Shown: positions 5,278-46,869 of the stretch, in pieces
Layout: each line of letters opens with the position of its first letter
Numbering within the stretch: position 1 is the first letter of the stretch
Source: Phoronis australis
Taxonomy: Eukaryota; Animalia; Phoronida
Length of the DNA stretch: 64,000 bases
Direction of reading: 5' to 3'
NCBI GenBank assembly: GCA_002633005.1
Contig: NMRA01000595.1
Span: forward strand, 173,367 to 237,366
Made by a program: the position numbers and the translations under genes
The notes under the pieces: generated by a model
What the model was told of the DNA's origin: nothing
The model's database searches: none
Seen by the model: the letters and a program-made list of their open reading frames with translations, nothing else

Positions 5278-5667
5278 TCAACAGGAAAATTTGCTATCAA
5301 TGGGCGAACAAAGGTTCAGCAGCTTACCGTTGCGTGGTCGACCATCAGGGAATATTTCATCACAAAGTGAGCGATCCTTAGTGCTCAACCAGTCATATAA
5401 AACTTCAATTCGCAGACCCTGTCCCCAAGTGAGTTTTTCGACAGCTCCCGAAGAAGAGGGACCTACGTTTGCACAAGAATGTGATGTAGAGTTGATGCGC
5501 GGAAAATATGACGTGTGAATAGCGACAAGTGCTGCCTTGTGGTCTTGAGAGCAAACAAACACCGGACTCCCAGACGAACCGTGACCAAATTCGGTGTTGA
5601 TATTATACACAACACGGCGAGGATCGGTCATTTGCGTTTTGCCAGGATAAGTTTTGAGGCTGGATAA
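5278..5667 (-). CDS. Last coding exon of the ankyrin-FAM111-like protease gene; catalytic Ser region
   Basis: Acceptor ttttcag, phase 0. Encodes LSSLKTYPGK...VVYNINTEFGHGSSGSPVFV...ALVAIHT...KFSC-stop. GSSGSPV is the trypsin-fold nucleophile motif and resembles FAM111A ITYDTEFFFGASGSPVF (recalled, not searched). Confidence 0.88.
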   Translation of the reverse strand, partial: LSSLKTYPGKTQMTDPRRVVYNINTEFGHGSSGSPVFVCSQDHKAALVAIHTSYFPRINSTSHSCANVGPSSSGAVEKLTWGQGLRIEVLYDWLSTKDRSLCDEIFPDGRPRNGKLLNLCSPIDSKFSC

Positions 5668-5775
5668 CTGAAAATAGGAGAGCAACGTCAGTTTTGACTG
5701 CCTTTAACCAGCACATTAGCCCACATATGATGCAAACGATATACGTTTCACAAATTTTCATCGGAGCGTAGTAAA

Positions 5776-5944
5776 TACCGTATTGATGCGCTATTAGGCT
5801 CGCGGGCCTTTATCCAAGACAATACCTTTTTCGCAGCCTGCTTTTTACCCGAGTGGTTCACGTTCTGGTGCATGTGCCTACGTTTCGCATATAAGAGCAG
5901 TTCCTCATAGGTGCCTATGGGCCTTTTGGCGCCACAATACGGTA
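5776..5944. mobile_element. pogo/Tc1-mariner-type MITE
   Basis: Ends TACCGTATTG ... CAATACGGTA (TA TSD plus short TIR), with further imperfect inverted symmetry inside. Confidence 0.6.
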
Positions 5945-6363
5945 ATAACTTTGGTCATACACTGATAAGATTGTTATAAACTGATATGGTTATGACTGTT
6001 CTGCATACCAATGTCATTAGTATGCAACTGCGACGAAAATATTCTCTCGTCAACCAGAAACAGTGAATTATACCTCAGCACAATACCAATCACTGACTTC
6101 AGAGGCCGCCTTTTTACTAGGATGCACAAGTCCCGAGGATCCCAGCAAAACATTGGTCTTTCATTCGCATGATTTTACGTGGTGAGCTTACTTATCGGGC
6201 ATTAGTCAAACTTAACGCCGGCCCACATTTCCGCTCGCACCTCAATACATTCACAATGCATTACATTAAACACGTGCAGTTGTTAATTACCAATGCACGT
6301 GCCATTTATTCTGTTGATGTGGCTATAATGAGGGGATTCCCAGATATAATCGCACGTGCTTAC

Positions 6364-6680
6364 CGTGGCTCGTACTTCCTTCTGAGACACCACTTTCCGC
6401 TTGATTTCAGCCACTTTAAACTCACCCCCGGGATGACCTACAAGATGCACTGTCGTTTGGATATCACCGAGGGCGCAAAACCGTGTGATCCCGTCAGGCA
6501 GCTTCTGTCTTTTGGACGCCTTCGCAATACTTGTTTCATCCAATTCCAGAAGTGCCACATCGAGGACTTCGTCAAATAAAAGTACTTTGCAGAAAAGCTG
6601 GATCTGGAGACACTTGGCATTTGGATGGTCAAAGTAAAACGTAGCATTCAATTTCAGTATTTGTCCGCCAGGTTTTTCCG
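6364..6680 (-). CDS. Protease exon carrying the catalytic Asp
   Basis: Acceptor cttcag (phase 1), donor ACG|gtaagc (phase 0), frame-compatible with both neighbours. Encodes LNATFYFD...DEVLDVALLEL...VHLVGHPGGEFK, like FAM111 ELDYAVLKL and IIGHPYGEKK. Confidence 0.85.
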
Positions 6681-10695: not shown

Positions 10696-10800
10696 TTAAG
10701 CCAACTTAAGGTGTCCCTTGTTAAAATAACATTCTGACATTCGATGACATATTAAAGGACACCAATGAAATAAAAAGAAGCATAAACGGTTTATGTTTAC

Positions 10801-12385: not shown

Positions 12386-12469
12386 CTCAAGAACATTCTT
12401 AAGTTCTTTTTCACGAGCGTCATCCATGTTACACCCTTCCACAACAACGTCTATTGCTGTTCTGCCACG
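12386..12469 (-). CDS. Ankyrin C-cap exon
   Basis: 84 nt, phase 0-0, ttacag...gtacga. RGRTAIDVVVEGCNMDDAREKELKNVLE has a GRTAxD terminal-repeat signature. Confidence 0.78.
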
Positions 12470-12909: not shown

Positions 12910-13011
12910 CTTATCAATCGCTGACACCTGTGCTCCGTTGTTCAACAACAACTTCACCACATCGATGCGGCCATGCGCAGAGGCCACGTGCAGAGAGGTA
13001 GCGCCGCTTTT
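12910..13011 (-). CDS. Ankyrin repeat exon C (last full repeat)
   Basis: 102 nt, phase 0-0, ttcacag...gtaata. KSGATSLHVASAHGRIDVVKLLLNNGAQVSAIDK is close to ankyrin consensus. Confidence 0.9.
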
Positions 13012-17680: not shown

Positions 17681-18593
17681 TAATAGGATGGCCAAGATGC
17701 TTAACGATGAATAATCCTTTGTCATCTGCGTTGATTGTAGCTCAAAACGCGATGGTTATACGCTGCGTAGTTTGAAACCTCTTTTACCTTTACCCATGGT
17801 CATAGTGGTACATGTAGGAAGCGAGCGACACCGTGGTGAGCGCCCTGTATTCATGAAGAAGTCTAACGGGGAGGGGGTAAATTACATGTACATTGTAAAC
17901 TGTATGTCATCAGCGGAGGGGTGTTTAAGGTGGATATTGTGAAAGAGCGCTGCACTAAACTACCTCCATTACGATCTGCATTCTATGACACCAAAATGTC
18001 TACCAATGAAAAATGTCGGCAACAAGCAAGCAAGTAGGCATCCAGGACATGCTTTTTCGTAGATTTTTCGTGCATCTCTTTGGCCAAATAACACCTTTCA
18101 AAATATTTGCAAAAGACCGCCCGGTACACGAAATGTAGAAAAGGTACAAATTGATTTCTGCTATGAGGAATCATTTGTTACGCTGCTTAAAGATTGTATT
18201 TACAGTGTACATTGTTTTGAGTTAAACAGACTTTGCAATCTACTGCATTGCAGTTAGATTAAATTGAAATTATAACAAAAATGTGAGGGACAAAAATAGT
18301 CACTAAACATGTGTATAGACCACGTAACAGCACCACATTTTTATGGAAACTTTTCTTTCTAACATTTTATTAAATATCGCACCGTAAACCTTCGCGCACA
18401 TAGAAGCGATGAATAATGCACATCCCTGGTTCATATTCAAATCACTAAATGTATAACCATGACTCAAATTTCAGGAACATGTCTAATGGAGACGTTACAG
18501 CAAAACCCTAGTCTCCCACAAATTATAATACACGTTTCAGTACTTAGTGTATGCAGTAACTTTTGTGTTTTAATTCAAAAGTGGTTCGATTAT

Positions 18594-18689
18594 CTCATCA
18601 TCCTGCTTTGCTCCATTGTCCAACAATAACTCCACCATCTTGACGTCACCTCTTTCAATTGACAAGTGTAGAGGGGAATCAATGAGCCA
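18594..18689 (-). pseudogene. Ankyrin exon A1 with mutated donor, probably skipped
   Basis: WLIDSPLHLSIERGDVKMVELLLDNGAKQDDE. Acceptor intact, but the donor reads ATAATC where paralog A2 has GTAATC. Confidence 0.75.
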
Positions 18690-19599
18690 CTGTGAATTAA
18701 AATAGTACCTATGCTTACTGATCGGACATTGTACGTAAATTTACAACTGTTCCTATGCCAAGTGTATCAATACCCGTTTTATGATACAATGGGCTGAATT
18801 TCAACCAATATTCAACGTCTGCTTTGTAAACCTCACACAACATACATGACGCGTTAACAAATTGAAAAATAAGTGACGGTAAATATCACAAAGACAGCTG
18901 TTGACAGTAAATACAAACATCAATCTTTCGAAAATTCAATACATTATGTCTTCGTACTCAAGTCACTCCTGACCGACACATATAAAGGGCAGAGAGTCTT
19001 CAAAAAAACATTTTCGCCTTATTTTCACCGTCGACGGCATTTTTCCATTGTACAGCGTCTTTTTGGTGAAACATTCCATGACCGTACCTGTACATGTATC
19101 TAGAATATTCCACTGACATATCCTACGTCGTTGTGAGTATTTGCACCGCCGTGACAATTTATGCTTGCACTATACAGTGCAATAACTCTACTTGGTAAAA
19201 AACCGGTTATTAAGAAAACCCTCTATTAAAATTGTGCAATCTTTCTAAAAAACACTTCGCAACACAATTTCAGACATCATTTGAACTAAACACGTACTAT
19301 TCATTGATAAACCATCGTTTATGTAAAAAGAAACTCAAGTTCTCTCAATGATCGATGACACACATGTAGTATAGTTTGGCTTAAATAATGTATGACTTAG
19401 CATTGTTCGGTAGAATCAAAACACTGAATTCCCCACGCGAATAGTGTTCGTCGTCAGTCAAATTTTTGACATTATCATCCAATAGGTGTAAAGCCTTACT
19501 CAATAAGCATAATTATTATAAAAATTCACGGGACGGTGCAAATATTTTTGTTTGGCAAACATTTCGAAAATGATATTGCAGATCGATCTTCTTTATTAC

Positions 19600-19701
19600 C
19601 TTATTAGGGTCTGCTCCTTGCTCTAACAGCAGCTGCACCATTTTGAGGTTGCCGATAGACACTGCATACTCCAGTACGCTGGTTTCTAACAGCCGAGTAA
19701 C
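19600..19701 (-). CDS. Ankyrin cassette exon B1
   Basis: 102 nt, phase 0-0, ttcag/gtaata. VTRLLETSVLEYAVSIGNLKMVQLLLEQGADPNK. Confidence 0.85.
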
Positions 19702-21227
19702 CTGAAGAATCAATAACAAAACACAACTACAAAAGTTTAAGGACATGCAATGCAAATATACCAGCGTAGTAAAAAGGTAATGAAAAAGTACAAAGGAAAT
19801 TTATTTATAATTCAATCGCAACGTTTTACATCAACAAACAATTATTGCAGTTTAACATGCAAATAAACTCGAAATGCACAACTTGCAGGCCTAAATGAAC
19901 TGGAAATCCTTACCCTGCCTACATTTGTCTTGAAAGAGATGAACAGGGAAAAAACAAAAGCATCAAAAGCGTTGGCTTTCTGCTGTACCGGCGTGCTTTG
20001 CACTCCTGAATAACACACACCTTTTTGTTTGATTGCATTGTGTGCATACTCAGTTGCTAGGTTACCATCACGTCCACAGGTTTGTTTAGTGCCTTTTTTC
20101 ATCCACCAGTCCTTATATGGCGATTGATACAGATAATTTTGTTTTACATGGATTCTGACAGTGTTGTAATTAATGAAAGCGATGAGCGACAGACGACGTT
20201 TGCGGAAACAGACACGTAAGGTATTTTGATCTATAGTTTTTAATCATCATAGTACTCAAAAAGTGCCCATCTATCATATGGTGACAAAACGCCCCAGTGG
20301 CAACAATCGAAGGTAGACATAACATACTGAACTACGCGTTTGTCCGCTGAAATACGCGCAAAACTATTACAAGCAAGCAGCCGCTTACACAACGGAGGTG
20401 GGGTGGCCCGGGACCACGGCCCAGGGCATCCATATTAGGAAGTATCCAATCGATAAATAAGCTTTTGTAAATTGTGATTCATTTTTAGTTAACGTGAATA
20501 AAGTTTCTTTTTTATGTTTCATTTTTTGCTGGTGTTAGTACTTAAGGGTTCATGCATTTGAGTAGAGAAGGCCGCCCAATAAAAAATCGCCCTGGGCATC
20601 ACCAAACCTCTGCACGCTATTGCTAGGATCAACTCTCAAACGTTGCCGTTGGCATCCACTAATTGGTTGAGGAAGTGGATGAGGTCTTCGTAGTTTGACG
20701 TAAACTCTTCAGCAATAACGGATTAAATATTACATCTTCTATTTCGTGTTGTAAAGACCCGTTTGTATTTTGGGCGGCGCAGCATAGGAGACTGGGAGGG
20801 GAGGGGACGGCGCCAGAGCCAACACTTTTTCAGTGCTGCACCACCCATGGTATATGGGGGTTATAGCCTAACACTTCTTTCAAAGCTGCGCCGCCCATGT
20901 TGTATCAAGAATATTCGACTGACAACTCGCGTACTTCCTTGTGACAATTTGGGCATGCACTATACATGTATATTACAATAACTCTATTTGGTCCAAATCG
21001 GTTGTTAAGAAAACCACTGTTTTTAATCACTTTTCCAAAGTGCAACCCTTCTAAAAAGCCCTTCGCAACACAAATTTAGACATCATAAACTTGGCGAGAC
21101 ATTACGAAATCTATACTACCTTTTTGAAATCCTTAAAAAGTCAAGTAAACACCAAGGCTTCTATACTGCAGCCAACTTAAAAATGACAAAAACAGTGGCA
21201 GCGTACACAACACCTGATGTACCGGCA

Positions 21228-21281
21228 GTCGACGTTGCCATACGAGGTTAGATGCAGATACATGTAGGTCGAGCCCAACAT
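21228..21281 (-). pseudogene. Truncated ankyrin exon relic D (copies at 24838-24891, 28323-28376, 31808-31861)
   Basis: Acceptor context aattcacag is shared with exons A and C. Reads MLGST[YM]YLHLTSYGNVD, then breaks into unrelated sequence. Contains TACATGTA. Confidence 0.6.
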
Positions 21282-22204
21282 CTGTGAATTAATAGGATGG
21301 CCAAGATGCTTAACGTTGAATAATCCCGTGTCATCTGCGTTGATTGTAGCTCAAAATGCTATGGTTATACGCTGCGTAGTTTGAAACCTCTTTTACCTTT
21401 ACCCATGGTCAAAGTGGTACATGTAGGAAGCGAGCGACACCGTGGTGAGCGCACTGTATTCATGAAGAAGTCTAACGGGGAGGGGGTAAATTACATGTAC
21501 ATTGTACACTGTATGTCATCTGCGGAGGGGTGTTTAAGGTGGATATTGTGAAAGATCGCTGCACTAAACTACCTCCATTACGATATGCATTCTATGACAC
21601 CAAAATGTCTATCAATGAAAAATGTCGGCAATAAGCAAACAAGTAGGCATCCAGGACATGCTTTTTCGTAGATTTTTCGAATCAACGTCCAAACGTGCAT
21701 CTCTTTGGCCAAATAACACCTTTCAAAACATTTGCAAAAGACCGGCCGGTACACGAAATGTAGAAAAGGTACAAATTGATTTCTGCTATGAGGAATCATT
21801 TGTTACACTGCTTAAAGATTGTATTTACAGTGTACATTGTTTTGAGTTAAACAGACTTTGCAATCTACTGCATAGCAGTTAGATTAAATTGAAATTATAA
21901 CAAAAATGTGAGGGACAAAAATAGTCACTAAACATGTGTATAGACCACGTAACAGCACCACATTTTTATGGAAATTTTTCTTTCTAACATTTTATTAAAT
22001 ATCGCACTGTAAACCTTCGCGCACATAGAAGCGATGAATAATACACATCCCTGTTTTATATTCGAATCACTAAATGTATAACCACGAATTTCAGGAACAT
22101 ATCTAATGGAGACGTGACAGCAAAACCCTAGTCTCCCACAAATTATACTACATGTTTCAGTACTTTGTGTATGTTGTGTTTTAATTCAAAAGTGGTTCGA
22201 TTAC

Positions 22205-22300
22205 CTTATCATCCACCTTTGCTCCATTGTCCAACAATAACTCCACCATCTTGACGTCATCTCTTCGAATTGACCAGTGTAGAGGGGAATTATTGAGCCA
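22205..22300 (-). CDS. Ankyrin cassette exon A2
   Basis: 96 nt, phase 0-0, ttcacag/gtaatc. WLNNSPLHWSIRRDDVKMVELLLDNGAKVDDK. Confidence 0.85.
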
Positions 22301-23203
22301 CTGTGAATTAAAATAGTACCTATGCTTACTGATCGGCCATTGTACGTAAATTTACAACTGTTCCTATGCCAAGTGTATCAATACCCGTTTTAAGATACAA
22401 GGGCTGAATTTCAACCAATTTTCAACGTCTGCTTTGTAAACCTCACACAACATACATGACGCGTTAACAAATTGACAAATACGTGATGGTAAATATCACG
22501 AAGACAGCTGTTGACAGTAAATACAAACATCAATCTTTCGAAAATTCAATATATTACGTCTTCGTACTCAAGTCACTCTTGACTGACACATATAAAGGGC
22601 AGAGAGTCTTCAGAAAAACACTTTCGTCTTATTTTCACTTTCGACGGTATTTTTCCATTGTACAGCGTCTTTTTGGTGAAACATTTCATGACCGTACATG
22701 TATCTAGAATATTCCCCTGACATATCTTACGTCGTTGTGAATATTTGCCCCGCGGTGACAATTTAGGCCTGCACTATACAGTGCAATAACTCTATTTGGT
22801 CCAAAAACGGTTATTAAGAAAACCCTCTATTAAAAATGTGCAATCTTTCTAAAAAACACTTCGCAACACAATTTCAGACATCATTTGAACTAAACACGTA
22901 CTATTCATTGATAAACCATCGTTTATGTAAAAAGAAACTCAAGTTGTCTCAATGATAAATGACACACATGTAGTATAGTTTGGCTTAATTAATGAATGAC
23001 TTAGCATTGTTCGGTAGAATCAAAACACTTAATACCCCACACGGATAGTGTTCGTCGCCAGTCAAATTTTTGACATTATCATCCAATAGGTGTAAAGCCT
23101 TACTCAATAAGCATAATTATTATAAAAATTCACGGGACGGCGCAAATATTTTTGTTTGGCAAACATTTCGAAAATGATATTGCCGATCGATCTTCCTTAT
23201 TAC

Positions 23204-23305
23204 CTTATTAGGGTCTGCTCCATGCTCTATCAGCAGCTGCACCATTTCGCGGTTGCCTGTTACCACTGTATACTCCAGTGCGCGGAGTCCTAACCGTCGA
23301 ATAAC
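23204..23305 (-). CDS. Ankyrin cassette exon B2
   Basis: 102 nt, phase 0-0. VIRRLGLRALEYTVVTGNREMVQLLIEHGADPNK. Confidence 0.85.
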
Positions 23306-26300: not shown

Positions 26301-26687
26301 TGATGAAAGACAACAATTCCTTTCTTTATGAGTACTGCTGTTTTAATAATACATCATTTGAACTAAACAAATATTTATTGATAAATCTTCATTTATGTTT
26401 AAAGAAACCCAAGTATGATGACTGAAGTTGTCTCAAAGACAAATGACACACATGTAGTATAATTTGGCTTAAATAATGAATGACTTAGCATTGTTCGTTA
26501 GAATCAAAACACTTAATACCCCACACGAATAGTGCTCGTCGTCAGTCAAATTTTTGACATTATCATCCAAAATGTGTAAAGCCTAACTGAATAAGTATAA
26601 TTAAAATAAAAATTCACGGGACGGCGCAAAAATTTTTGTTTAGCAAACATTTCGAAAATGAAATTGCAAATCGATCTTCTTTATTAC

Positions 26688-26789
26688 CTGATTAGGGTCT
26701 GCTCCACGCTCTAACAGCACCTGCACCGTTTCGAGTTTGCCTCTGGATATTGCAAACTCCAGTACATTTTGCCCAAACAGCCGAGAAAC
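26688..26789 (-). CDS. Ankyrin cassette exon B3 (not in the ORF track)
   Basis: 102 nt, phase 0-0, tttag/gtaata. VSRLFGQNVLEFAISRGKLETVQVLLERGADPNQ. Confidence 0.85.
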
Positions 26790-29700: not shown

Positions 29701-30174
29701 TTTATGCTAAATTATTGCCGACGCCATCTGCTAAGCCCAATATATTTAAAATAATAAAAATCCATTCATTGAAGAATTAAAGAATTTTGATGAAAGACAA
29801 CAATTCCTTTCTTTATGAGTACTGCTGTTTTAATAATACATCATTTGAACTAAACAAATATTTATTGATAAATCTTCATTTATGTTTAAAGAAACCCAAG
29901 TATGATGACTGAAGTTGTCTCAAAGACAAATGACACACATGTAGTATAATTTGGCTTAAATAATGAATGACTTAGCATTGTTCGTTAGAATCAAAACACT
30001 TAATACCCCACACGAATAGTGCTCGTCGTCAGTCAAATTTTTGACATTATCATCCAAAATGTGTAAAGCCTAACTGAATAAGTATAATTAAAATAAAAAT
30101 TCACGGGACGGCGCAAAAATTTTTGTTTAGCAAACATTTCGAAAATGAAATTGCAAATCGATCTTCTTTATTAC

Positions 30175-30276
30175 CTGATTAGGGTCTGCTCCACGCTCTG
30201 ACAGCACCGGCACCGCTTCGAGTTTGCCTCTGGATATTCGATACTCCAGTACATCTTGCCCAAACAGCCGAGAAAT
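30175..30276 (-). CDS. Ankyrin cassette exon B4 (not in the ORF track)
   Basis: 102 nt, phase 0-0, splice sites intact. ISRLFGQDVLEYRISRGKLEAVPVLSERGADPNQ, with some fold-disrupting changes. Confidence 0.68.
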
Positions 30277-33200
30277 CTAAAGAATTAATAACAAAACACA
30301 ACTACAAAAGTTTAAGGACATGCAATTCAAATAAACCAGCGTCATAAAAGGTAATAAAAAGTACAAAGCAAATTTATTTATAATTCAATTGCAACGTTTT
30401 ACATCAACAAACAATTGCAGCTTAAAATGCAAATAAACTCGAAATGCACAACTTGCAGGCCTAAATGAACTGGAAAACCTTACCCTGCCTACATTTGTCT
30501 TGAAAGAGATGAACAGGGAAAAAACAAAAGCATCAAAAGCGTTGGCTTTCTGCTGGACCGGCGTGCTTTGCTCTCCTAAATAACACAAACCTTTCTGTTT
30601 GATTGCATGGTGTGTATACTCAGTTGCTAGGTTACCATCACGTCCACAGGTTTGTATAGTACCTTTTTTCATCCACCAGTCCTTATATGGCGATTAATAC
30701 AGATAATTTTGTTTTATATGGATTCTGAAAGTGTTGTATTAAATGAAAGCGATGTGCGACAGACGACGTTTGCGTAAACAAACACGTAATGTACTATTTT
30801 GATCTATAGTTTTTAATCATCATAGTACTCAAAAAGTGCTCATCTATCATATGATGACAAAACGCCCCAGTGGCAACAATCGAAGGTAGACATAACGTAC
30901 TGAACTACGCGTTTGTTCACTGAAATACGCGCAAAACTATTACAAGCAAGCAGCCGCTTACAGAACGGAGGTGGGGTGGCACAGGACCACGGCCCAGGGC
31001 ATCCATATTAGGAAGTATCCAATCGATAAATAAGCTTTTGTAAGTTGTGATTCATTTTTAGTTAACGTGTATAAAGTTTCTTTTTATGTTTCATTTTTTG
31101 CTGGTGTTAGTACTTAAGGGTGCATGCATTTGAGTAGAGAAGGCCGCCCAATAAAAAATCGCCCTGGGCATCACCAAACCTCTGCACGTTATTGCTAGGA
31201 TAAACTCTCAAACGTTGCCGTTGGCATCCACTAATTGTTTGATGAAGTGGATGAGGTCTTCGCAGTTTGACGTAAACTCTTCAGCAACAACGGATTAAAT
31301 ATTACATCTTCTATTTCGTGTTGTAAAGACCCGTTTGTATTTTGGGCGGCGCAGCATAGGAGACTGGGAGGGGAGGGGACGGCGCAAGATCCAACACTTT
31401 TTCAGTGCTGCACCACCCATGGTATATGGGGGGCTGGGGGTTATAGACTAACTCTTTTTTCAAAGCGGCGCGTCTCATGTTGTATCAAGAATATTCTACT
31501 GACAAGTCACGTGAGACCTTGTGACAATTTGGGCATGCACTATACATGTATATTATAATAACTCTATTTGGTCCAAATCGGTCATTAAGAAAACCACTGT
31601 TTTTAATCACTTTTCAAAAGTGCAACCCTTCTAAAAAGCCCTTTGCAACACAAATTTAGACATCAAAAACTTGGCGAGACATTACGAAATCTATACTACT
31701 TTTTTGAAATCCTTAAAAAGTCAAGCAAACGCGAAGACTTCTATACTGCAGCCAACTTAAAAGTGATAAAAACATTGGCAGCGTACACAACACCTAATGT
31801 ACCGGCAGTCGACGTTGCCATACGAGGTTAGATGCAGATACATGTAGGTCGAGCCCAACATCTGTGAGTTAATAAGATGGCCAAGATGCTTAACGATGAA
31901 TAATCCTTTGCCATCTGCGTTGATTGTAGCTCAAAACGCGATGACAAAAACTATTTGATATTCATTAAATAAAACAACAAACCAGATTTTCTTTAAGAAT
32001 GACGATGTTCTTAGTAACATACTAACTGATTATTGGAGGACATTATTGAAGATTTGAATGAGTGACTAACTAAAGCTTCACTAGGGCTAAGTTTTCTTTT
32101 TGGAACGTGACCTTAATTATTTCGGCAATTTATGCATCAGTGAAAGGTTCAACATTTTAGGTCAACTTTTGACCTAAACAAAATAAAAAAAACGACTAAT
32201 CCGAAAGGGAGTGGCGAAATTAATAAAGATTCATTAAGATAGAAACTGGTATTGTGCTGCTGCGGGACTGAATTTGTATCAAACAGGAAAATGGGAACAC
32301 ACAAAACTGAGCTGAGTTTCCTAGATGCAAGAATCTCTCGAAGGAAACGCGTGTCATCACATGCTTCAAGTATAAAACGTAGCGATATTTTGCGAAGTCT
32401 TCCATAATCTTCAGTTGCTATTTCTCTAAGTTCTCGCTTCTACGTGATACAACTGGCTTAGCCAGGAGTGTTCAACAGCGGGACTACTTATAAATAATAT
32501 TAGGAAACAATTTCGATAAAACGGCTTTGTTTTAAAGAGTAGTAAAAAGTGGACAGGATTTCTAAATAACGCTACCCCGCTGATAGGGTATAATGAGAGA
32601 AGCAATCAACAAAGCTCTTACTAGTCAATAAGGCTCCTTCAAAAATAACGTGACTGCTGCAACTCTAGATATGTAGTGTGAGTAAGAAGCTGCGGCCGAA
32701 CAAACTTTTGTCGAGACCTGTGTCACGTGAATCTAACTATCCAAAAATGATCTGACTATAGGAGAACAAAAATTCATATATGGTTATAGGTCACCGACTT
32801 TGGAACTGCATGTGATATCGGATTTCATATTATCATCCATTGGCCCGTTCAATTGTTTGCAAAGTTGAAATTCACTTCTCCAAATGTTTAGGTAGCTTTT
32901 GAACTCTGCTAGTTAAAATAAACAGCTGCTGATTGGCTAGAGGGTCCCAAGTGATTCAAATGTGATGCACGTGAAGTTAATCGCTACACTAACCATTGCC
33001 ATGAATATAATAAAAGATTCGGCTTGTTGTCTTACATTCTTGTATCTCATTGCGTGAATCAGTTCTAATTCAGATCCATTCAATCTTTCTTTGTTCAGTG
33101 TTGTTGCAGTTTCGCAATAAGGGCCAATTCACTAATCAGTTTACAGGCCTACTCCGTTTAAGTGAATAATTTATGCTAAATTATTGCCGGCGCCATCTGC

Positions 33201-33621
33201 GAAGCCCAATACATTTAAAATAATAAAAATCCATTCATTGCAGAATTATGAATTTTGATGAAAGACAACAATTCCTTTCTTTATGAGTACTGCTGTTTTA
33301 ATAATACATTATTTGAACTAAACAAATATTTATTTATAAATCGTCATTTATGTTTAAAGGCGAAGGCAACCTTTTTCCATGTCATTTTGAGCTAAAATAA
33401 GGTTGGTTGGTTATCCTAGACATATTTTCTACTTAATTACAGCTTTTCGTAATTTATTAATTACTCGTCCGCTACTCCGGAAGTGACGTTTTAGGAGGCA
33501 AGCATTTCGCGCCAATTTCTTTTCATATAGTCTGATTGTGAGAGCTGCCGAGTCAGTCATTGTTCTACCTCGCTTGTGTTAAGTTCCGTCGTCGTTTGCT
33601 TTCATTTACTAGTCAGACAAC

Positions 33622-34700
33622 ATGCCACACTGTTGCTACGTACCAGGATGTACTATTTATCGGCTCACGCGCGCTTTGGTAGTACCTTTCCATCGCTTTC
33701 CGATGGATGACACACTTCGCCGTACTTGGCTCGTTCGTGTGAAGAACGCAGCGTTACCCGTCCACGCAACGTACATGTACAAAGCAGTGGAGAATTCCGT
33801 GTGTGTGGCAAGCACTTTCTGCCGTCCGATTACGAAAGGGATCTGTACGCTGAACTGATGAAGGTCCCTGTGAAACAACTTCTGAAGAAAGATGCCATTC
33901 CGTCTGTGTTGATTCCCGGCAGTGCCCCGTCGCCACCCCCGAGAAGTGAGTTTTTGAAACGAGAAGCCTCGCGAGCTGTGGCCAGTACAGTGACTGGAGC
34001 CAGTGGAGGCACTTTATCTACTGTCACCCGTGCCTCCGAACGTACCCCAGAGCGTGCAATTCCTGGAACCAGTAGTGATTCGCACTGTGCTGTTTTCTCC
34101 AGCCCAGAGCCTCTAAGCAGCCCTGCAGCGATATCGAGTAGTGGGAGTGATTACAGGCCCAGTTCGACACCCAGTGAAGAGGACAGTTCGTCGTCCAGTG
34201 AACAGATCGGTGAGCCAAACTTTGATAAGTTTATTGTGGACTTGTCTAAAGTGTTGGAGCTATTTAGAAGGTGCCAGGTGTGTGGCGAGGGAGTCACACG
34301 ACACAATGTAAGCAGTTTGGGTGCTCAGGTCACCATCCAGTGGGAGTGTGTCACGGGACACTCTGGCAAGTGGGACAGTTGTTCCTCTGTCCGTGGTATG
34401 CCGGAGGTCCACTTAACCATGTCCAGTGGTGTGCTCTTCACTGGAAACACGTTTCAGTCGGTGAAGACAATGATGGACTTTGGAAAAGTCAAGTTTTTTT
34501 TCGAAAACAACATTCAACAACATTCAGAATTCCTATTTAATACCAGTTGTCAATGACGCATACATGTCACAACATCTCGAGTTGGTGGCGGAATTCATGG
34601 AGAAGGAGAACTTGTCTGACTCACCAGGGCGGTCCGCCAAGTATACCACATACACTCTAATGGAGGAAGAGACCAAAAAGATAATTGATGTGGAACTCGG
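33622..34700 (+). pseudogene. THAP-domain Kolobok transposase, frameshifted and truncated
   Basis: THAP C2CH (MPHCCYVPGC..FHRFP..RTW..RVCGKHF..DAIPSV), CxxC...C..GH..W, then DSPGRSAKYTTYTLME. Split over three frames and cut off at ~34700. Confidence 0.88.
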
Positions 34701-34701
34701 A

Positions 34702-34968
34702 ACAGCACAAGCATTCAATTGAGGTAGGCATAACAACGCACACAGTGCATTTGCACCAAGATGTGTCACCACGTCTGTCTTCAGTAGCCGCCTCGTTTCT
34801 CTCAACAGCTGCCTGTGCCTGTGTGTACTCTGCCTCGTTGTACTCGGGCTCAAACATGTACCCACCCACTGAATGTCCGTGAAAAAATTCCTCGTCACCA
34901 CTGCTGTGAACAAGGTCTCCGTCACTCACACTACTGTCACTGTGATACGGGTCACCGACTCCAGCCAT
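34702..34968 (-). pseudogene. KolX fragment (P2X7 C-terminal/Nanor-like zinc module)
   Basis: MAGVGD...GYMFEPEY...RRGDTSWCKCTVCVVMPTSIECLCC, convergent with the transposase as is typical of Kolobok. Confidence 0.8.
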
Positions 34969-35591
34969 TTTCAGCTTACAACACACTAAACAATCCCTAA
35001 ATCCAACGCAGTTGAGTTCTCTACTAACCTATCTTGCCGCAGAATACTCGCCGATGGAAAGTGGTGGCGACAATTGGTGAAAAATAGCACAAAACAAAAG
35101 TAGAATAGAACAGATTCGCACAGTAAGCTCAACGCAAAACCAAGTGGCGGGAAGCGCTTGCCTCCTAAAACGTCACTTCCGGAAAAGCGGACGAGTAATT
35201 AATAAAATTACGAAAAGCTGTAATTAAGTGAAAAATATGTCTAGGATAACCAACCAACCTTATTTTAGCTCAAAATGAAATGGAAAAAGGTTGCCTTCGC
35301 CTTTAAAGAAACTCAAGTATGATGACTTAAGTTATCTCAATGATGAATGACACACATATAGTATAATTTGGCTTAAATAATGAATGACTTAGCATTGTTT
35401 GGTAGAATCAAAACACTTAATACCCCACACGAATAGTGTTCGTCGTCAGTCAAATTTTTGACATTATCATCCAATAGGTGTAAAGCCTTACTCAATAAGC
35501 ATAATTATTATAAAAATTCACTGGCCGGCGCAAATATTTTTGTTTGGCAAACATTTCGAAAATGATATTGCAGATCGATCTTCTTTATTAC

Positions 35592-35693
35592 CTTATTAGG
35601 GTCTGCTCCTGGCTCAAACAGCAGCTTCAACAGTTCGCGTTCGCGGAAAGACCCTTCAATCACATGTGCGATGGTTTTTATCGGTCGATGAAC
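35592..35693 (-). CDS. Ankyrin cassette exon B5, highly diverged
   Basis: 102 nt, phase 0-0, splice sites intact, no stop. VHRPIKTIAHVIEGSFRERELLKLLFEPGADPNK. Confidence 0.62.
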
Positions 35694-36667
35694 CTGAAGA
35701 ATCAAGAACAAAACACAACTACAAAACTGTAAGGACATGCAATGCAAATAAACCAGCGTAGTAAAAAGGTAATGAAAAAGTACAAAGGAAATTTATTTAT
35801 AATTCAATTGCAACATTTTACATCAACAGACAATTGCAGCTTAACATGCAAATAAACTCGAAATGCACAACTTGCAGGCCTAAATGAACTGGAAATCCTT
35901 ACCCTGCCTACATTTGTCTTGAAATAGATGAACAGCTAAAAAACAAAAGCATCAAAAGCGTTGGCTTTCTACTGGACCGGCGTGCTTTGCACTCCTAAAT
36001 AGCACACACCTTTCTGTTTGATTGCATTGTGTGTATATTCAGTTGCTAGGTTACAATCACGTCCACAGTTTTGTTTAGTGGTTGTTTTATCCACCAGTCC
36101 TTATATGGCGATTGATACAGATAATTTTGTTTTACATGGATTCTGACAGTGTTGTAATAAATGAAAGCGATGTGCGACTGACGACGTTTGCGGAAACAGA
36201 CACGTAAGGTACTATTTTGATCTATAGTTTTTAATCATCATAGTAATACCCAAAATGTGCTCATCTATCATATGACAAAACGTCCCAGTGGCAACAATCC
36301 AAGAGCCACATAATGTATTCAACGGAATGTTTGCCACTGTTTTGCGCGCAAAACAATTACTAGCAAGCAGTAGCTTAGAGAATGGGGGCACGGAACCACG
36401 GCTCCGGGCATCCCTATTAGAGAACATCCACTCGATAAATAAACTTTTTGAAAATGCGATTCGGCGCCAGAGCAGACATTTATTCAGTTCTGCACCGCCC
36501 AAGGTATATGGGGGCTGGGTGAGGGGAAAGTCAGGCTATAGCACAACACTTTTGCAGTTGTACGCCGCCCATGTTGTAAGACTTGTTTACCAAAGATCAC
36601 GAAATTTCGTTTTGATTTTATGCAAAAGTATACATGGCGTTAATTCTCGGATGCTGTAAACATTCCA

Positions 36668-36760: not shown

Positions 36761-36763
<3 letters not shown>

Positions 36764-37811: not shown

Positions 37812-40620
37812 GGCAGCAACTATCCAACAATTCTGCTATGACTGTACCTCTCTCCTAATGGAATATGATGTTAAGCGTCAGAAAACGATTCCGAACTTGG
37901 GCATAATAGAATGAGTACAACAACTGGGTGAGTTAAATTGCGCAGACAACAACAAGGAATGACTTCCCAGACTCTCAAAAATCAACTGAATACATGGGTT
38001 TGCGAAACTTGGCACATCTAGATCCCAAATTTAAATTTTGGCAATGAACCATTGACTGGGTGGTGGGCATTTGAAATGACCAAAATAGCTACATTTTCAG
38101 ATCTGTAAAATCGGCCCAATCAAACTTTAAACTGCACTAATATTTGAAAAGGAGATATTATAATGTTAACTTTTCACATTTTAGACTTTAAACCAGTAAA
38201 CTGAAGTCATCTAAAAGTGGGAAATTCTATGAACTTTCATGTTCACACGACCATTCGACCTGTTCAATGATACTTAAATAAAATTAAAATCAGTAATTCA
38301 CGACCCTGGTTTATAACTTAGTCCATGAATTTACGGCCACATCTAAGTTTCACTAATAGGTATGCGTGTAAAAGGTATGGAAACAACGAAATAGTTCTTC
38401 ATATTATCATTCCCACATGAATAATTAGCACTGTGCTTAAACTGAATAATGATGCCGATTAAAACATCATCTTGATTTACTCCATAGTCGAACAAATGCT
38501 TCACCACATCGACGTGGCCATTCATTAAAGTCCTTCTCTCAAACTGTCCATGTGGTTCCAGTATCCGAAAATACTTACTACATAAATTCTTATTTTCGAC
38601 ACCCTTTCTTTATATTCTTTTCGCCTTTCTTGCCAAAAGCGATTTTTTAACAGTATTTGACCCTTCTCTATGAGCATATGATTACCGGTTGTCATCGGTT
38701 ATTTCCGTACCCACATTTCCGGCTCATCAGTTCAGGAACTTGTCCTGAACGCCGCCATTTTTTCCTTGTAACTGAATGTGCTATGGCTTGCTCGAAAAGT
38801 CTTTATTATTTCGTTTTATTAGTAATATATCGTGATTCGTTTGCATATGTAGTGTATTTATAGTTTGTAGTTAGTGGTCGTTGAATTTTTGGAATGTTAC
38901 GCGTACTTAGTATGTTAAAATAGCATTGGTGTTTAGTTCCTTACGTAGGCCGGTCGAACCTAGGAACCAATATGGGTCGAACCAATTTTTTTCGGTTTTA
39001 TTTTTTCCTCGTTTTGAAAAAGTACTTTGCTATCATCGGAAAGGTAGTACATTGTACTCAGTAAAAATCGAAAAAGTATCAAAATCGGGGAAAGCACTGT
39101 AAAGTTATTGCAAGTTTTGTGGCGAAATTTGGGTCACTTTGTTGGATCGCGTCGGCCATATTGGAGGACAGCGGGATAAGTTACGAGTTTAAAACTTTGT
39201 GTAAATTGTTTTCGCCAACAAATTACGGTGAAATTTAGTTAGACATATCTTTACTTACTATTCTGCACGATTTAACAGTGTTCACCAAATTTCAGCCTCG
39301 CAGTTGTTACTCATTAAGTGATATGTGCTCAAAATTCCCGTTGGACAACATGGCGACTTTTGCTGAACTGAAAGGTATGTTCAATCGGCTACTTTGTAAT
39401 TTGTGAAGATTTAACGTTGATACATTTTGACAAACGTTGCTACAAAAAAGAAACTTTGTTCAATTTTCGTGTTTTTTGTGCAAAAATATAAGATATATTC
39501 GAATTATTTCAGGTTATCAAGTCAACAATTTGAACAATCTTAATTTGAGAAATAAGCTATGTTGGATTGTGAGGCTTCAAGCCTCTAATTCTTGTTCCTT
39601 GCAACTTCATATTTTTTTAAGCGATGCTTGTCAAATTCTGGTGAAAGGAAACACTATTCCGTCACCATGGTAATAGTTACATGTATGTCCACTTTCATAT
39701 CATGGAAACTGTTGCTGTTGTGTTGGACTTGTCATACTTAAAGATAGTAAAAGATGGACATTCTCAAAAATTCCAGCCCCCCATTCTTTTAGGCTTGGTG
39801 CGCAAATACAAAGTCTGGGAAAATCTCTATTGAAAGCCAACAACTTTGCACAGTTCGTACCCAAGTTCTAAATAAACCTCGTTTGAGCGAGCGCTGTGGC
39901 CAGGGACCAGTTAGCAGCAACTATCCAACAATTCTGCTATGACTGTACCTCTCTCCTAATGGAATTTGAAGGGAAACTTTAATGAGAGTGAGAAAATGAT
40001 GTCAGAATTTGCGCATGTTAGACTGATTACAACAACAGGGTGAGTCTCATTGTGTAGGAAATAATTCTCAGACTCTTAAATATGAACTGAATACAAGGGT
40101 GTGACAAACTTGGCACATCTAGATCCCAAATTAGTTTAAATTTCGTCAATGAACCATGGTCTGGTTGGAAGGCATTGGAAATAACCAAATAGCTACATTT
40201 TCAGATCTGTAAAATTGGCCCAATCAAATTTTTAGTATTAGAAAAAGAGACATCTCAATGTCAATTTTATATTTTTTAGAGTTTCAACCAGTAAACTGAA
40301 GTCATTTAAATGTGGGGGAATTCTATGAACTTTCGAGTTCACGCGACCATTTGACCTGTTCAATGATACTAAAATAAAAGGGAGATGAATAATTTACGTC
40401 CCTGGTTTATAAACTTGGCCATGAATTTACGACCACAGCTAATTTTAACTCACAGTTATGCATGCAAAAGGTATATATTACAACGAAATTGTTCTAAATA
40501 TAATTCCCACATGAGTAATTAGCACTGTGCTTAATTTGAACAATGATGCCGATTAAAACATCATTCACATTTAGTCCATAGTCCAATAATAGGTTCACCA
40601 CATCGATGTGATCATTCGTT
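37812..40620. repeat. Older diverged direct duplication (~37812-38525 vs ~39913-40620)
   Basis: Both copies begin gcagcaactatccaacaattctgctatgactgtacctctctcctaatggaat, stay colinear for ~700 bp and end in an ankyrin relic. Confidence 0.85.
38462..38525 (-). pseudogene. 5'-truncated ankyrin exon relic
   Basis: MNGHVDVVKHLFDYGVNQDDV. The first half of the repeat and the acceptor are missing, and the donor-equivalent position reads TTAATC. Confidence 0.65.
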
Positions 40621-40646
40621 GAGGTGTAGAGAGGTGGTGCTCTTTT
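40557..40646 (-). pseudogene. Decayed ankyrin exon related to exon C
   Basis: KRAPPLYTSTNDHIDVVNLLLDYGLNVNDV. The acceptor-equivalent cacag reads cactg and the donor-equivalent gtaatc reads ttaatc. Confidence 0.65.
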
Positions 40647-40722
40647 CAGTGACTGGGATTTGTTGTCTTCGTAGACAAATGCTAACGCATCATGGCAAAC
40701 TTCACGTGACAATCAACGAATA

Positions 40723-42927: not shown

Positions 42928-43080
42928 CAGTGGCGGATTTAAGGGTGGCGAAGGGGCCACGCCCCCTAAAGTTCTACCAGATTCCATTTGGCAGCTTGGG
43001 GGGGACGAATTTCTGACGGGTAAAACCCTGGCTAATACTCTGCCCTGTCCCCCCAAATCAAAATCCTGGATCCGCCCCTA
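42928..43080. mobile_element. Short GC-rich MITE-like element
   Basis: Ends CAGTGGCGGATT ... GATCCGCCCCTA form an imperfect TIR. No TSD seen. Confidence 0.45.
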
Positions 43081-46000
43081 TGACAACCCCGGGAATGAAG
43101 CCATCAAGAGTTGAGTAACCGTGAACCAACTCGGAGAGTAAGAATGGGCCTAGGACCAGTATACGAACCGGTAGCTAGGAGCTGCCTCAAGTAGCTACAA
43201 CTGAGATCTAATAGTGTGTAGATTCGAAATTCCCGATGAACTAAAGGTAGTTGCTGCATGGTCAGCTCAGCTGTGTTTCAATTGAGACCGGCAGCTCGTA
43301 CCGGCCGTCAAGATTTGTTTTATTGTGATCCGGTTTCGGGAAAACTTTATTTTATTATGGTCATTCTTTGAAGGAGTTTTTTTTGAAAAGGTGAGATCCC
43401 GAAGTCACTGGTATAGTGCCTTTGGGGCTGTTTCAAAATGCGTAGTTGAAACAGGACCGGTACTCCCTTTTTCTGGTGGCTGGGGAAAATGATAGTGTGT
43501 CCCAAAATGTACACACTTCCTGAATGCCTGGAGTTCAAATACAGTTCCCATGGACCATGAGATTCTGCGATGGCCAACTGCATGGTTGCATCTTATCTTT
43601 AACGTTTGTACGTCAGTCATAACGTGCACGCAAATAAGGACAAGCAATCAATTCTGTTTTGAAGAACAAAAATTAATTGCTCAGTACTACTGGAAACGAA
43701 AGACACCAACTGAGGATGTGCAAACGCAACGTTTCCAAGCAATGAAATTAATTTTATTTATTTAAGTATTTTTAAAACGTTTTTCTAGCTACGGCTTATG
43801 AGTCTGAATTTCATCAATGTCTTTGAGAGTTATTTTAGATATGCAAAAATCTTCTATAAGTGTACTTTACTATTTGCGGATCGGATTATAGAGTTTTTCC
43901 AACTTCAGGCTGCAATTAAATTCACTGAAACATCGTCAATTCTTACAAAATTACCTTCTAATTGTCAAAAATCATTCACGAATCTATCGATTTTTGTAGC
44001 TACACTGTACATAAACAAGTAAATCAGAAACCAACGGATTTGTTTATCAAATCGGAATGTTTTTGCAATTTCGGTAAGCATGCTTGCAGACTTTTGACGG
44101 GTACCAGGGGGAGTATGGGGGATGCGGTATTAAGGTGTATTTTTGCTCATTTCAAAGGTACCTATAACGGTTCACGAGGTAAACTTGAATTCCACTGACA
44201 CAAAACGCTGAAATCTTTTTGTATGATTGCGAGAGTTCTTTGAGTACCCCCGTTCGACATGTAAACGGTCATCACAAATAGTAGCCTAGACAGCAGTGCT
44301 TTCCACATGTGTGAATTCCTTACTAACAACTCATAGTTAGTAACCCTATTCAAAAGAGATACTACTCTTGTGATACTATAGGAAACAGTAACATCATCTT
44401 ATAAGTAACTGCAGGAAATAGTCCTTTTGCGTAATTCACAAATAGTTGTCTTCACGTTCTTCAAAATTCCACCCTTTCGATGTTATTTGTCAGGTCATCA
44501 TTTTTTCTCAAGTGATACATGTATGCAGTTTCGAGAAAAAAATAAAGTTAAAGTTGTCTCCATTATCCCTTGCCAGAGAGGGGCACATGGAAAAATGTAG
44601 TTTTTCAATCGCAAAATTGACTTATTGAATTTAAAAGTCCGGTAAATCAGTACGCCCCCCCAAATTCACCACTGGTCTTCTTTTATCTAGTCTCGGGATT
44701 TTGAGTTTGCGATTGTGTTATGCAGTGCTAAAAGGAAGGTTTAATGTTGCTGTCAATTATCAAAACAAATTGAAGATAAATGGCAATTTTAATCACTTAA
44801 AGAAAGGACAATCAACTAGATAACGAAACTGGTGAAAATTAAGGAAAATGTCACTTTTTTAAGGTAAGGGAAAACGTAAATGAAATAGGCAATAGTTAAA
44901 GAAAATCGCATCTACGTGAGAGAAACTCTTAATTAATTAAAACTCAGAATAGTATCATTCGATAGAATAATAATGTTAAAGTATCTCGATTGTATCCATG
45001 TGTGTGTCAAAAGCTTTTATTACTGTTTAAAGAGCAACTTTACCGTTTTTTGAATGTTTCTTTGGTCAACACGGCAAAATATAAAAAAAAACACAATGTA
45101 GGTCTTGTTTGTTGATTTTGGTTTTGAAAACTGACGGAAACAGTGTGCTTATGTTGGATTTAATGGCCTTTTTGGATTCCTGTGCCATATCAAAGATATG
45201 AGAGGCGTTTCGGTACTGTTTTTACCCCGGTCGTTATACAAAAAATCGGCAATGGCAGCACTAATTTGCATAAAAAACGTACGAGAGACATTTTTTCGGC
45301 TTGTTAACATCGTTTTTCTGGTTTCACGCATATTTTCCTTCATAAAAATTCAGCTTAGAAGTTGAAGTCCGGGGGGTGCACGGAAGGCCATTTTTCGACT
45401 AGACTAATACACACGCATGTCATTAAAAATTTGATCTGTTGTCTCTCCAAGTCAATAATGACTAACAAAATGAGCACGTAGTCAGGAGGAGAAGGCTTAC
45501 GCTTCATTTCACAGTCGACGGGATTTTTATATTGTACCACGTCTTTTTGGTCAAACATTACATGATCGTAGATAGAATATTCAAGTGACAAAGAATACCG
45601 TGGCCTGTGCAGCTGTGGAAACAATTGGGGATTGTACCATATACAAATGTAGTACAAAAACTGAGTATGGCCCCAAACCGGTTTTTAAAAGCAATACCTT
45701 GCAACCGTTTTTTAATTATCTTTCAAAAGAATTCACCTTTTCTAAAAGCACCCCGTACCACAAATTTTGATATCAAAAAGTTGACGAGACATTATGAAAT
45801 ATATTTTGTTGTTGAAACCCTTGAAAAATCAAGCAAACGTCAAGACTTCTACAGTTGTGTAGTGCAGTCAAACTGAAACGAAAACGAGAAAAGCAGCGGC
45901 GGCTTTTGTGATAGAGATTGTCAAAAATGATCGTTTTCATTTTGCATCATGCATCAAATAAAATCTTTAATCCTGGGTGGGAAAGTCCCAAAGTCGAGGG

Positions 46001-46791
46001 TACTTGCATTGTCTTACAATAACCGTGAGAAATCCTAATCGGTGTCAAATTGAAACAAAAGTGAGAAAAACAATGGCAGCTTTTGTGATAGGGATTGTCA
46101 AAAAAGATCACAGCAGAACTTAAAGAGATGGCATCATACATCAAACGAATAAAACTTAAGACAATAGAATGGGTTTTGCATGATGTCTCTTATGAATAAA
46201 ACAATATGTCCTTTTGATACGATCGAGTGATGGTATTTTAACCACTTCTTTATCTTATTGTAAATATTGACATTATTTATGTAGATCGATGTAAATAAAG
46301 TGAAAGTGTAATACTATGTGACTTAGTGTATGAAAGTGCTTCCCCCTCCCATTTCCTCTATCCGTATTTTGTAATAATCTCATCTTAATTGCAAGCATAA
46401 TCAATATGAGTTATTTTCAAAATACCTATTTGTTTTGTACGATGTACTGTTGCTTACGTTGTAAGGATACCTAACTAGGGCCACCCAACCCCAGCTATAT
46501 TCACTAATTATAATTGATAATATGATTACTGCGTAAATGAATGTATTAAATGAGAAAAGAAATCACCTATTTTTTAATCCTACAGTTGGTTTACCCTTTT
46601 TGACTTTTAAAAATGCAACAAACCCAATTTTAAGGCTTAATTGGTAAATTGCTAAATATTACTGGAATGTTTATTCCATGGCCTATCTACATTTGCAACA
46701 TTTTACGTCACGTGTTCAATACATGGACAAAGTTATATTCTGTCATTGTAAGTTCATTATGTTGCACATTTGAAATACTAGTCATACTTAC

Positions 46792-46869
46792 ATGGTAATT
46801 GACATGCACACCTTGCCTCAGCAACCATCGAACTTCATCAACTTCACCTCCTCCTACAGCCCTGAACAA
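46792..46869 (-). CDS. Ankyrin N-cap exon (not in the ORF track)
   Basis: 78 nt, phase 0-0, acceptor tgttacag, perfect donor GTAAGT. LFRAVGGGEVDEVRWLLRQGVHVNYH resembles the N-cap pattern [24 protein letters not shown]. Confidence 0.82.

Follow-up and report, generated by a model that had tools for sequence, protein, structure and literature searches.

Does a single gene of the phoronid Phoronis australis join a variable ankyrin array to a trypsin-like serine protease? The question was raised by an earlier note on the 64,000-nucleotide stretch of contig NMRA01000595.1 analysed here (the window, numbered from its first letter), and we addressed it with a gene model of 13 exons on the minus strand, running from 46869 to 5278 (Table 1). 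Joined, these exons form a 642-codon open frame whose only stop codon lies at its end, and which reads in order through an ankyrin N-cap, seven repeats, a C-cap, a linker and a predicted trypsin-fold protease. The in-frame GT-AG splicing described in the note was confirmed, as all 13 acceptors are AG, all 12 internal donors are GT, and the phases match across the model (0 through the ankyrin part, 0-1 for the linker, 1-1 for P1 and 1-0 for P2). Because the ankyrin exons are all of phase 0-0, their in-frame splicing is automatic and uninformative as to which of them are used. A first coding exon with a start codon was not found, 15 candidate donors allowing no choice.

Table 1. Positions of exons and repeated elements of the locus within the window
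Feature	Positions	Strand	Remarks
Ankyrin N-cap-like exon, 78 nt	46792..46869	-	Phase 0-0; ends AG, GTAAGT; matches DARPin N-caps
Two decayed ankyrin-exon remnants, in a 0.7 kb duplication	38346..40712	-	Near 40650 and 38560; Pfam Ank E 0.07 for the first
Tandem array, about five units of 3.5-3.6 kb	17681..36519	-	Self-BLAST; spacing 3463-3604
Cassette exon A35	35592..35693	-	Strongly diverged; splice sites intact; no Pfam match at E 1
Cassette exon A30	30175..30276	-	Degenerate near-copy of A26; Ank_5 (E 0.06) the sole Pfam match
Cassette exon A26	26688..26789	-	Pfam Ank E 7e-5; AG/GT
Cassette exon A23	23204..23305	-	Pfam Ank E 2e-4; RNA joint to B22
Cassette exon B22, 96 nt	22205..22300	-	Pfam Ank E 3e-7; RNA joint to A19
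Cassette exon A19	19600..19701	-	Pfam Ank E 6e-6; RNA joint to B18
Exon B18, ankyrin repeat without GT donor	18570..18689	-	Acceptor used in RNA; above Pfam Ank cut-off; absent from the 642-codon model
Exon C13, most canonical ankyrin repeat	12910..13011	-	Pfam Ank E 1.7e-8
C-cap-like exon	12386..12469	-	AG/GT ends; called by eye
Linker exon, 56 residues	12000..12168	-	Charged, likely helical; RNA joint to P1
P1	10801..10983	-	Predicted catalytic His codon 10825-10823; Trypsin_2 positions 2-27, E 0.15; DegS E 0.026
P2	6364..6680	-	Predicted catalytic Asp codon 6561-6559
P3 and stop codon	5278..5667	-	Predicted catalytic Ser codon 5574-5572; Trypsin_2 positions 106-136, E 0.19

Six of the eight repeat exons (A26, A23, B22, A19, C13 and B18) passed the Pfam Ank cut-off. 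Neither cap exon had a Pfam match; the N-cap exon resembled DARPin N-caps at a whole-sequence E of 1e-4, a value summed over repeats, with a best stretch of 9.2 bits. From these sequences we regard an ankyrin repeat array with both caps as present, the C-cap being assigned by eye only. The highest 19-residue hydropathy value in the modelled part was 1.68, with no transmembrane-like stretch and no tail anchor, and no SOCS-like box was seen in the modelled protein. The array units carry an A exon, two of them a B exon, and four a decayed copy of a C-type exon with an acceptor (near 31860, 28375, 24890 and 21280). These copies scored 128-138 against C13, compared with a shuffled maximum of 85-95, and GTAAT is common to seven of the eight ankyrin donors. 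That four units end in a decayed C13 copy with its acceptor intron, together with the common donor sequence, indicates that the cassettes and C13 come from one exon series. The last cassette unit is cut by a repeat at 17681.

The triad that the earlier note had called intact is so in our model, where predicted catalytic His400 (LTNYHV), Asp448 (LDVALL) and Ser545 (GSSGSP) follow in order, the last in a GxSGSP nucleophile elbow. Single-exon scans with Pfam Trypsin_2 reached 13.2 and 12.9 bits against a cut-off of 27.6, with matches at the expected profile positions. When the exact exons were rescanned with Pfam, P1 returned Peptidase_C4 (E 0.13), P2 and P3 had no match, and Nal1_C was not matched. 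ESM features pointed to clan PA for P2 and P3; for P2, the top ESM Atlas match reached 0.91 in Trypsin/Trypsin_2 clusters, and 10 of 10 matches were of the same clan. AlphaFold modelling of exon P3 alone yielded a pLDDT of 32, and a helix-like stretch was recognised by eye ahead of the protease's first strand. P1-P3 therefore likely encode a trypsin-type protease (clan PA, S1 / Trypsin_2) with a full predicted triad. The name FAM111-like, which the note had given it, is a weak label: similarity to FAM111 came from P3 alone, whose top PDB match was FAM111A at E 0.25, and P1 and P2 had no PDB match to FAM111A at E 10. Of the architecture claimed in the note, the ankyrins and a trypsin-fold protease with a full predicted triad are supported.

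Searches for homologues of the protease exons returned little. P2 had no hit at E 0.001 among 1.84 billion representatives, and within longer proteins P3 was found in none of 317 candidates (E 0.01) and P2 in none of 139 (E 10). A STAND-type NTPase gene adjoins the locus head-to-head. A control search with this neighbouring ORF, confined to proteins of 798-2275 aa, was equally empty (0 of 7991), so that the lineage is probably poorly covered by the database and the empty protease searches are no proof of novelty. Against plasmids, tblastn gave one serine protease for P3 at E 2 and none for P2, and PHROGs gave nothing below E 0.07. DegS, LmuA and PDC-S45 appeared as weak matches (E 0.02-0.03), far below cut-offs. 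A metagenome locus, one of 188 stretches, was rejected, its match being to an unrelated bacterial ORF by chance and not extending to the catalytic motifs. The onconase and armadillo matches for P2 and P1 were likewise rejected as due to chance and motif-free.

Transcription was assessed with stranded reads from one fifth of runs X2, X3 and X4 and with contigs of run X1, the comparison being confined to positions below 24000. The cassettes were joined from A23 to B22 (21, 11 and 27 reads in X2, X3 and X4, respectively), from B22 to A19 (23, 19 and 30) and from A19 to B18 (36, 30 and 39), and the repeat-exon joints were strictly serial among the 15 of 63 joints listed. A19 was about twice as deep as A23, which could be due to skipping, a copy-number difference or 3′ bias. 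Downstream, the joints from linker to P1 (three reads in X2 and one X1 contig) and from P1 to P2 (8, 0 and 3 reads in X2, X3 and X4, and one X1 contig) matched the model exactly; the P2 to P3 joint was absent among the 15 of 63 listed, and P3 was covered by correct-strand reads. Bin depths imply that about two X2 reads stop precisely at the two edges of the C-cap exon, and C13 had depths of about 8, 3 and 0 in X2, X3 and X4, its flanking introns also being covered by reads. Read depth over the cassette exons was usually some ten times that over the protease exons, and the expression of the two halves did not track across the three runs. In X4, cassette exon depth was 34-89 or more, and that of C13, the C-cap and the linker was 0.

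Of the single fused protein proposed in the note, each half is seen spliced in RNA, but no joint from a cassette to C13 appeared among the 15 of 63 joints listed, and there was no loose read end at 13011. Joints were listed from three reads upward, and a fused isoform at the level of the C-cap exon (about two reads) would fall below this threshold. The cassette transcript leads instead into B18, which has AT where a GT donor would be expected and whose frame continues into a stop. Since A19 is joined to this donor-less exon and the cassette exons are so much deeper than the protease exons, the main product is likely ankyrin-only, with B18 likely its last exon. The polyadenylation signals at B18 (ATTAAA at 18574 and AATAAA at 18371) are weak evidence for this ending, since B22 has the same ones yet is spliced onward. 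On the possibility, raised in the note, of separate transcripts for the ankyrin and protease exons, the data go halfway: the dominant cassette transcript enters the dead end of B18 and far outnumbers the protease half. C13 itself has five ATGs in the 389 nt upstream, one of them in frame and stopping after six codons. Having no usable upstream ATG, C13 needs an upstream phase-0 exon, for which the evident candidates are the cassette exons and the N-cap, and for this reason an ankyrin-protease fusion remains likely as a minor isoform.

Between the halves lie stacked repeats and a gap in the assembly. The gap (181 N at 17043-17223) lies inside a repeat, between the cassettes and C13, and it would allow the halves to be two neighbouring paralogues, or different haplotypes joined across it, with the hidden sequence holding the 3′ end of a cassette gene and the 5′ ankyrin exons of a protease gene. 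The uncoordinated expression of the halves fits such an arrangement, as does the fact that B18 depth does not reveal where reads go next. However, 134-138 reads of the repeat family in X2 and X3 pass straight from 17029 to 17224, as expected of one element with almost nothing missing at the gap. At 88% likeness, the reads gave no sign of C, the C-cap or the linker being present twice, and even a separate protease gene would have ankyrin exons at its start. We consider an origin of the halves from two genes or haplotypes improbable.

The variable ankyrin sensor of the earlier note is directly supported by sequence divergence, as the cassette exons evolve at several times the rate of their introns (8-44% against 2-8%; Fisher p 0.008 or lower among the A-exon pairs), mostly by amino-acid changes. 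pN exceeded pS in 10 of 10 A-exon pairs, although these pairs are non-independent and gene conversion in the introns could inflate the exon/intron contrast. The excess of amino-acid change falls mainly in the repeat's first half. A35 differs from the other A exons by 25-44%, with flanks at 5-8%, and all eight differences between A30 and A26 change the residue; in the B-exon pair the contrast was not significant (p 0.10). Some changes in A30 and A35 fall on conserved ankyrin positions, and a passage of PMC9798293 describes FAM111A as also acting in DNA replication. Both would suit a real fusion without an immune role, in which the ankyrins serve as an adaptor for host substrates (in quality control, development, allorecognition or gamete recognition) and diversity stems from unstable tandem duplication. 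Neutral decay, however, should not exceed the intron rate, and A35 against A19 gave a pN of 0.32 with a pS of 0.06 and flanks at 0.05. A non-immune fusion seems to us the least probable explanation.

For the protease half, the window was compared with contigs of run X1. Of the 16 differing sites listed, 12 are non-synonymous and 2 synonymous codon differences, a ratio compatible with neutrality (p 0.28) and incompatible with an omega of 0.2 (p 3e-4), so that the protease carries no sign of purifying selection. Such a ratio would fit an ancestral fusion that has since broken down, its halves uncoupled by a stack of inserted repeats and by the lost B18 donor into a functional gene for the ankyrins alone and a protease tail that is transcribed weakly and drifts. 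The AT at the B18 donor, the use of B18 as the main target of A19, the lack of a joint into C13 among those listed, the roughly tenfold lower level of the protease half, with the linker absent in X4, and the repeat that cuts the last cassette unit all point in the same direction. Yet the protease exons are still spliced precisely and C13 is the best-kept repeat; neither the copy in the window nor the listed X1 differences contain a stop, a weak argument at about 20 substitutions in X1. We hold a broken fusion to be possible but doubtful; if it is true, the locus is a snapshot of domain loss.

We favour, with a probability of about one half, a single fast-evolving gene likely to have two products: a plentiful ankyrin-only protein that stops at B18 and, less commonly, an ankyrin-protease fusion that would act as an intracellular immune sensor-effector. 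The ankyrin exons would diversify at likely binding positions, and skipping of B18, from A19 or B22 to C13, would generate the fusion. Its ankyrin face may recognise a ligand that itself changes, probably a protein of a pathogen, and binding would deliver substrate or bring two protease domains together, comparable to the dimerisation of FAM111A (PMC10920703), while the ankyrin-only form would compete for the ligand and so damp or decoy the protease. The putative fusion would be cytosolic, serve in immunity and be gated in the manner of RNase L. It is a tentative and rather unlikely further step to see here an undescribed animal immune receptor-protease, combining a diversifying exon-encoded library of ankyrin binders with a FAM111-like protease, in which a donor mutation diverts most transcripts to a sensor-only decoy or inhibitor and the head-to-head STAND NTPase is a partner. 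From the RNA, one change at a donor likely determines how much sensor-only product is made relative to sensor-protease product. Should the sensor-effector reading be true, the diversifying ankyrin module would be a concrete answer to what aims invertebrate FAM111-type proteases. It would also be a new way for invertebrates to vary what they recognise inside the cell, comparable with the exon-shuffled LRR receptors of brown algae.

In keeping with the earlier note, which did not know the architecture as a characterised family, no report of an ankyrin-trypsin-protease architecture was found among the openly accessible papers listed by the literature searches. RNase L has conserved N-terminal ankyrins that bind one small ligand, followed by a pseudokinase and an RNase. 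The predicted fusion likewise places an N-terminal ankyrin array before a C-terminal destructive enzyme, with sensor and enzyme in one chain supported from C13 to the protease at 2-8 reads; it departs from RNase L in its diversifying repeats and in having a protease as its enzyme. The PDZ domain of HtrA/DegP/DegS (S1C) is not present here.

FAM111A, FAM111B and invertebrate FAM111A-like proteins are treated in parts of PMC9798293, PMC10920703 and PMC13245274. FAM111A and the protease described here have in common a Trypsin_2-type fold, the His-Asp-Ser triad and a Gly two residues before the Ser, as predicted in our case. The catalytic residues are spaced by 48 and 97 residues here and by 54 and 102 in FAM111A, and His556 of FAM111A, which lines the S1 pocket, aligns with His564 of the present model. 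Vertebrate FAM111 proteins carry two N-terminal ubiquitin-like domains, whereas the present model has ankyrins and the 56-residue linker instead, encoded in part by a multi-exon cassette array that FAM111 does not have. According to passages of PMC9798293, intracellular FAM111-type proteases are antiviral in mammals and have invertebrate relatives without the vertebrate regulatory domains, among them coral and lancelet FAM111A-like proteins that lack ubiquitin-like domains. FAM111A requires dimerisation through an N-terminal helix and has chymotrypsin-like specificity, as described in part of PMC10920703.

In passages of PMC8195603, trypsin-like peptidases are plug-in effectors of bacterial conflict systems, often beside STAND NTPases, and ankyrins are variable recognition modules in lineage-specific immune expansions of invertebrates; no ankyrin-trypsin fusion was found in 12 of its 13 matching passages. 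The brown-algal ROCO genes, candidate immune receptors described in part of PMC11378527, hold LRR arrays with one repeat per exon. In the present locus, too, ankyrin exons of uniform phase encode one repeat each and show an excess of amino-acid change, and the locus shares with the ROCO genes, as far as described there, tandem duplication and diversifying selection. Compared with the same passages, it differs in its ankyrin rather than LRR repeats, in its predicted protease in place of a ROC-COR GTPase, in its animal host, and in a donor-less terminal exon that likely gives rise to a sensor-only form.

The window was animal-type DNA (39% G+C, with introns and transposons) and carried the ankyrin and protease exons on its minus strand. 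Using splice sites and between-copy similarity, we located 14 coding exons, 13 of which joined into 642 codons with a single terminal stop in the order N-cap, A35, A30, A26, A23, B22, A19, C13, C-cap, linker, P1, P2, P3. The in-frame splicing claimed in the earlier note thus held for the model, although the fit of the ankyrin exons is automatic because every one is of phase 0-0. More telling is the asymmetric chain of linker (0-1), P1 (1-1), P2 (1-0) and P3; C-cap, linker, P1 and P2 were each open in just one of three frames. A start codon, sought at 15 candidate upstream donors, was found at none. The fourteenth exon, B18, lies outside the model, is 91% identical to B22 and has AT instead of GT as its donor.

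Pfam Ank scored above cut-off in six of the eight repeat exons (A30 and A35 fell below), and the N-cap exon aligned best to DARPin N-caps. The A exons recur in tandemly repeated units of 3.5-3.6 kb, four of which close with a decayed copy of C13 and its acceptor intron (alignment scores 128-138 vs a shuffled maximum of 85-95); therefore, the cassette exons (A and B) and C13 share descent from one exon series. A 181-N assembly gap lies between the ankyrin and protease halves, inside one repeat of the stack that separates B18 from C13, and is bridged by reads from other copies of that repeat. That two loci were joined across this gap is, in our judgement, improbable.

Differences between A exons reached 8-44% of bases vs 2-8% in 600 flanking intron bases, a contrast that intron gene conversion could have inflated. 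Fisher p was 0.008 or lower, and pN exceeded pS in all ten A-exon pairs, which are not independent. Changes clustered towards the start of the repeat, in its first half, which comprises the hairpin and first helix that make up the ankyrin binding face. The B pair (B22/B18) showed nine non-synonymous and no synonymous differences, with a non-significant exon-flank contrast (p 0.10). That the product is a non-immune adaptor-protease is a reading we consider improbable.

The full catalytic triad noted earlier was present in the spliced model as His400, Asp448 and Ser545, spaced 48 and 97 residues. Single-exon matches were weak (Trypsin_2 profile positions 2-27, E 0.15, and 106-136, E 0.19; DegS for P1, E 0.026) and consistently agreed with one another, and ESM features placed P2 and P3 in clan PA clusters. 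Judged from sequence, this half is very likely a trypsin-fold protease. The top PDB match of P3 was FAM111A, a weak one (E 0.25) in which the His lining the S1 pocket was aligned; P1 and P2 gave no FAM111A match in PDB, and the protease is a possible FAM111 member. Homologue searches with P2 and P3 returned none, but a control search was also empty for the neighbouring STAND-type NTPase gene, which lies head-to-head with the ankyrin gene and had no relatives among the longer proteins searched.

RNA evidence came from a contig set (X1) and three stranded raw runs of one study (X2-X4, 18-19% of each examined), mapped onto 4700-24000 and separately onto 10730-13080. In the latter mapping, 44 of the 47 raw reads matched at 99% identity or better; the RNA therefore derives from the same locus. 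Among the joints listed (15 of 63 for 4700-24000, threshold 3 reads), splicing was seen within each half, and no cassette-to-C13 joint appeared; at this threshold, the C13 acceptor showed neither a splice joint nor a loose end. Bin depths in X2 imply about two reads stopping exactly at both C-cap edges and the linker acceptor, below the threshold, and some reads extend into the introns flanking C13.

Features and splice joints of the window (joint reads as X2/X3/X4)
Feature	Positions	Strand	Detail
B18	18689-18594	minus	
B22 bases matched by X4 reads of another ankyrin gene	22210-22249		
A19 depth interval	19600-19701		
Possible alternative C13 donor	12874-12909		GTAAGT consensus, 36 bases beyond C13 donor, in frame; X2 depth covers stretch
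Repeat stack	13072-17684		strongly transcribed opposite to gene; X2 depth ~390 at 16936-17579
DNA transposon in cassette array	33358-35302		TTAA both sides; terminal inverted bases 20/20 matching; ORFs for THAP and P2RX7_C in opposite orientations; fits Kolobok elements
Second TTAA-flanked element, P1-P2 intron	9052-10695		inverted ends 15/20 matching; deep coverage by reads from other copies, both strands
STAND-type NTPase gene	57218-57505, 59754-61118	plus	AAA_16 E 0.003; NB-ARC E 0.003
Joint A23>B22			21/11/27
Joint B22>A19			23/19/30
Joint A19>B18			36/30/39
Joint P1>P2			8/0/3, one X1 contig
Joint linker>P1			3/0/0, one X1 contig

Per-base depth was 18-89 on cassette exons vs 0-12 on C13 to P3, and zero in X4 on C13, C-cap and linker; therefore, most cassette transcripts stop short of this protease. 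B22 depth in X4 was higher still owing to reads of a different ankyrin gene: about 190 X4 reads agree with B22 over 40 bases and then diverge into other sequence, coming from an expressed relative elsewhere in the genome. In each of the three raw runs, A19 had roughly double the depth of A23, explicable by skipping of the A23-B22 unit, by individuals differing in copy number or by 3' bias.

The B18 frame hits a stop 8 codons beyond the lost donor, which points to an ankyrin-only protein with a predicted B18 3' end as the likely main product. A fused ankyrin-protease probably exists as a minor isoform, because C13 is without a usable upstream ATG and because a fusion at the C-cap level (about two reads) would escape listing.

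The X1 contigs were about 96% identical to the window and may represent a paralogue. Among 16 sites listed, 12 codons were residue-changing and 2 synonymous (one synonymous site from X2/X3 reads), a ratio compatible with neutrality (p 0.28) and rejecting omega 0.2 (p 3e-4). Seven of the listed changes fell within residues 553-592, directly after the catalytic Ser, a region of substrate loops. The ratio would suit rapid adaptation as well as decay. Recent uncoupling of the gene into separate halves, which would suit decay and the absence of a listed cassette-to-C13 joint, is an alternative that we hold unlikely.

We put at roughly 0.5 the probability that one gene yields two products, mainly a sensor-only protein and to a lesser extent a sensor-protease; the ligand of the ankyrin face would be a changing one and is probably foreign. 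The bound ligand would be presented to the protease or would bring two protease domains together, and the sensor-only form may compete with the sensor-protease. The observation in the earlier note was partly confirmed and its sensor-effector reading partly supported: the exon structure, the triad, splicing inside each half and the diversification stood, and we infer the fusion junction, ligand, activity and immune role.

In domain logic the proposed fusion resembles RNase L. Among the papers covered by our literature search, none reported an ankyrin-trypsin-fold protease architecture. FAM111A activity requires dimerisation, and its triad spacing is 54 and 102 residues vs 48 and 97 here (PMC10920703). 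Invertebrate FAM111A-like proteins without ubiquitin-like domains are described in the accessible part of PMC9798293, which names no ankyrin form among them. Trypsin-like effectors beside STAND NTPases are already a known theme of bacterial conflict (PMC8195603), and exon-shuffled ROCO receptors (PMC11378527) resemble the proposed ankyrin-protease gene in design.
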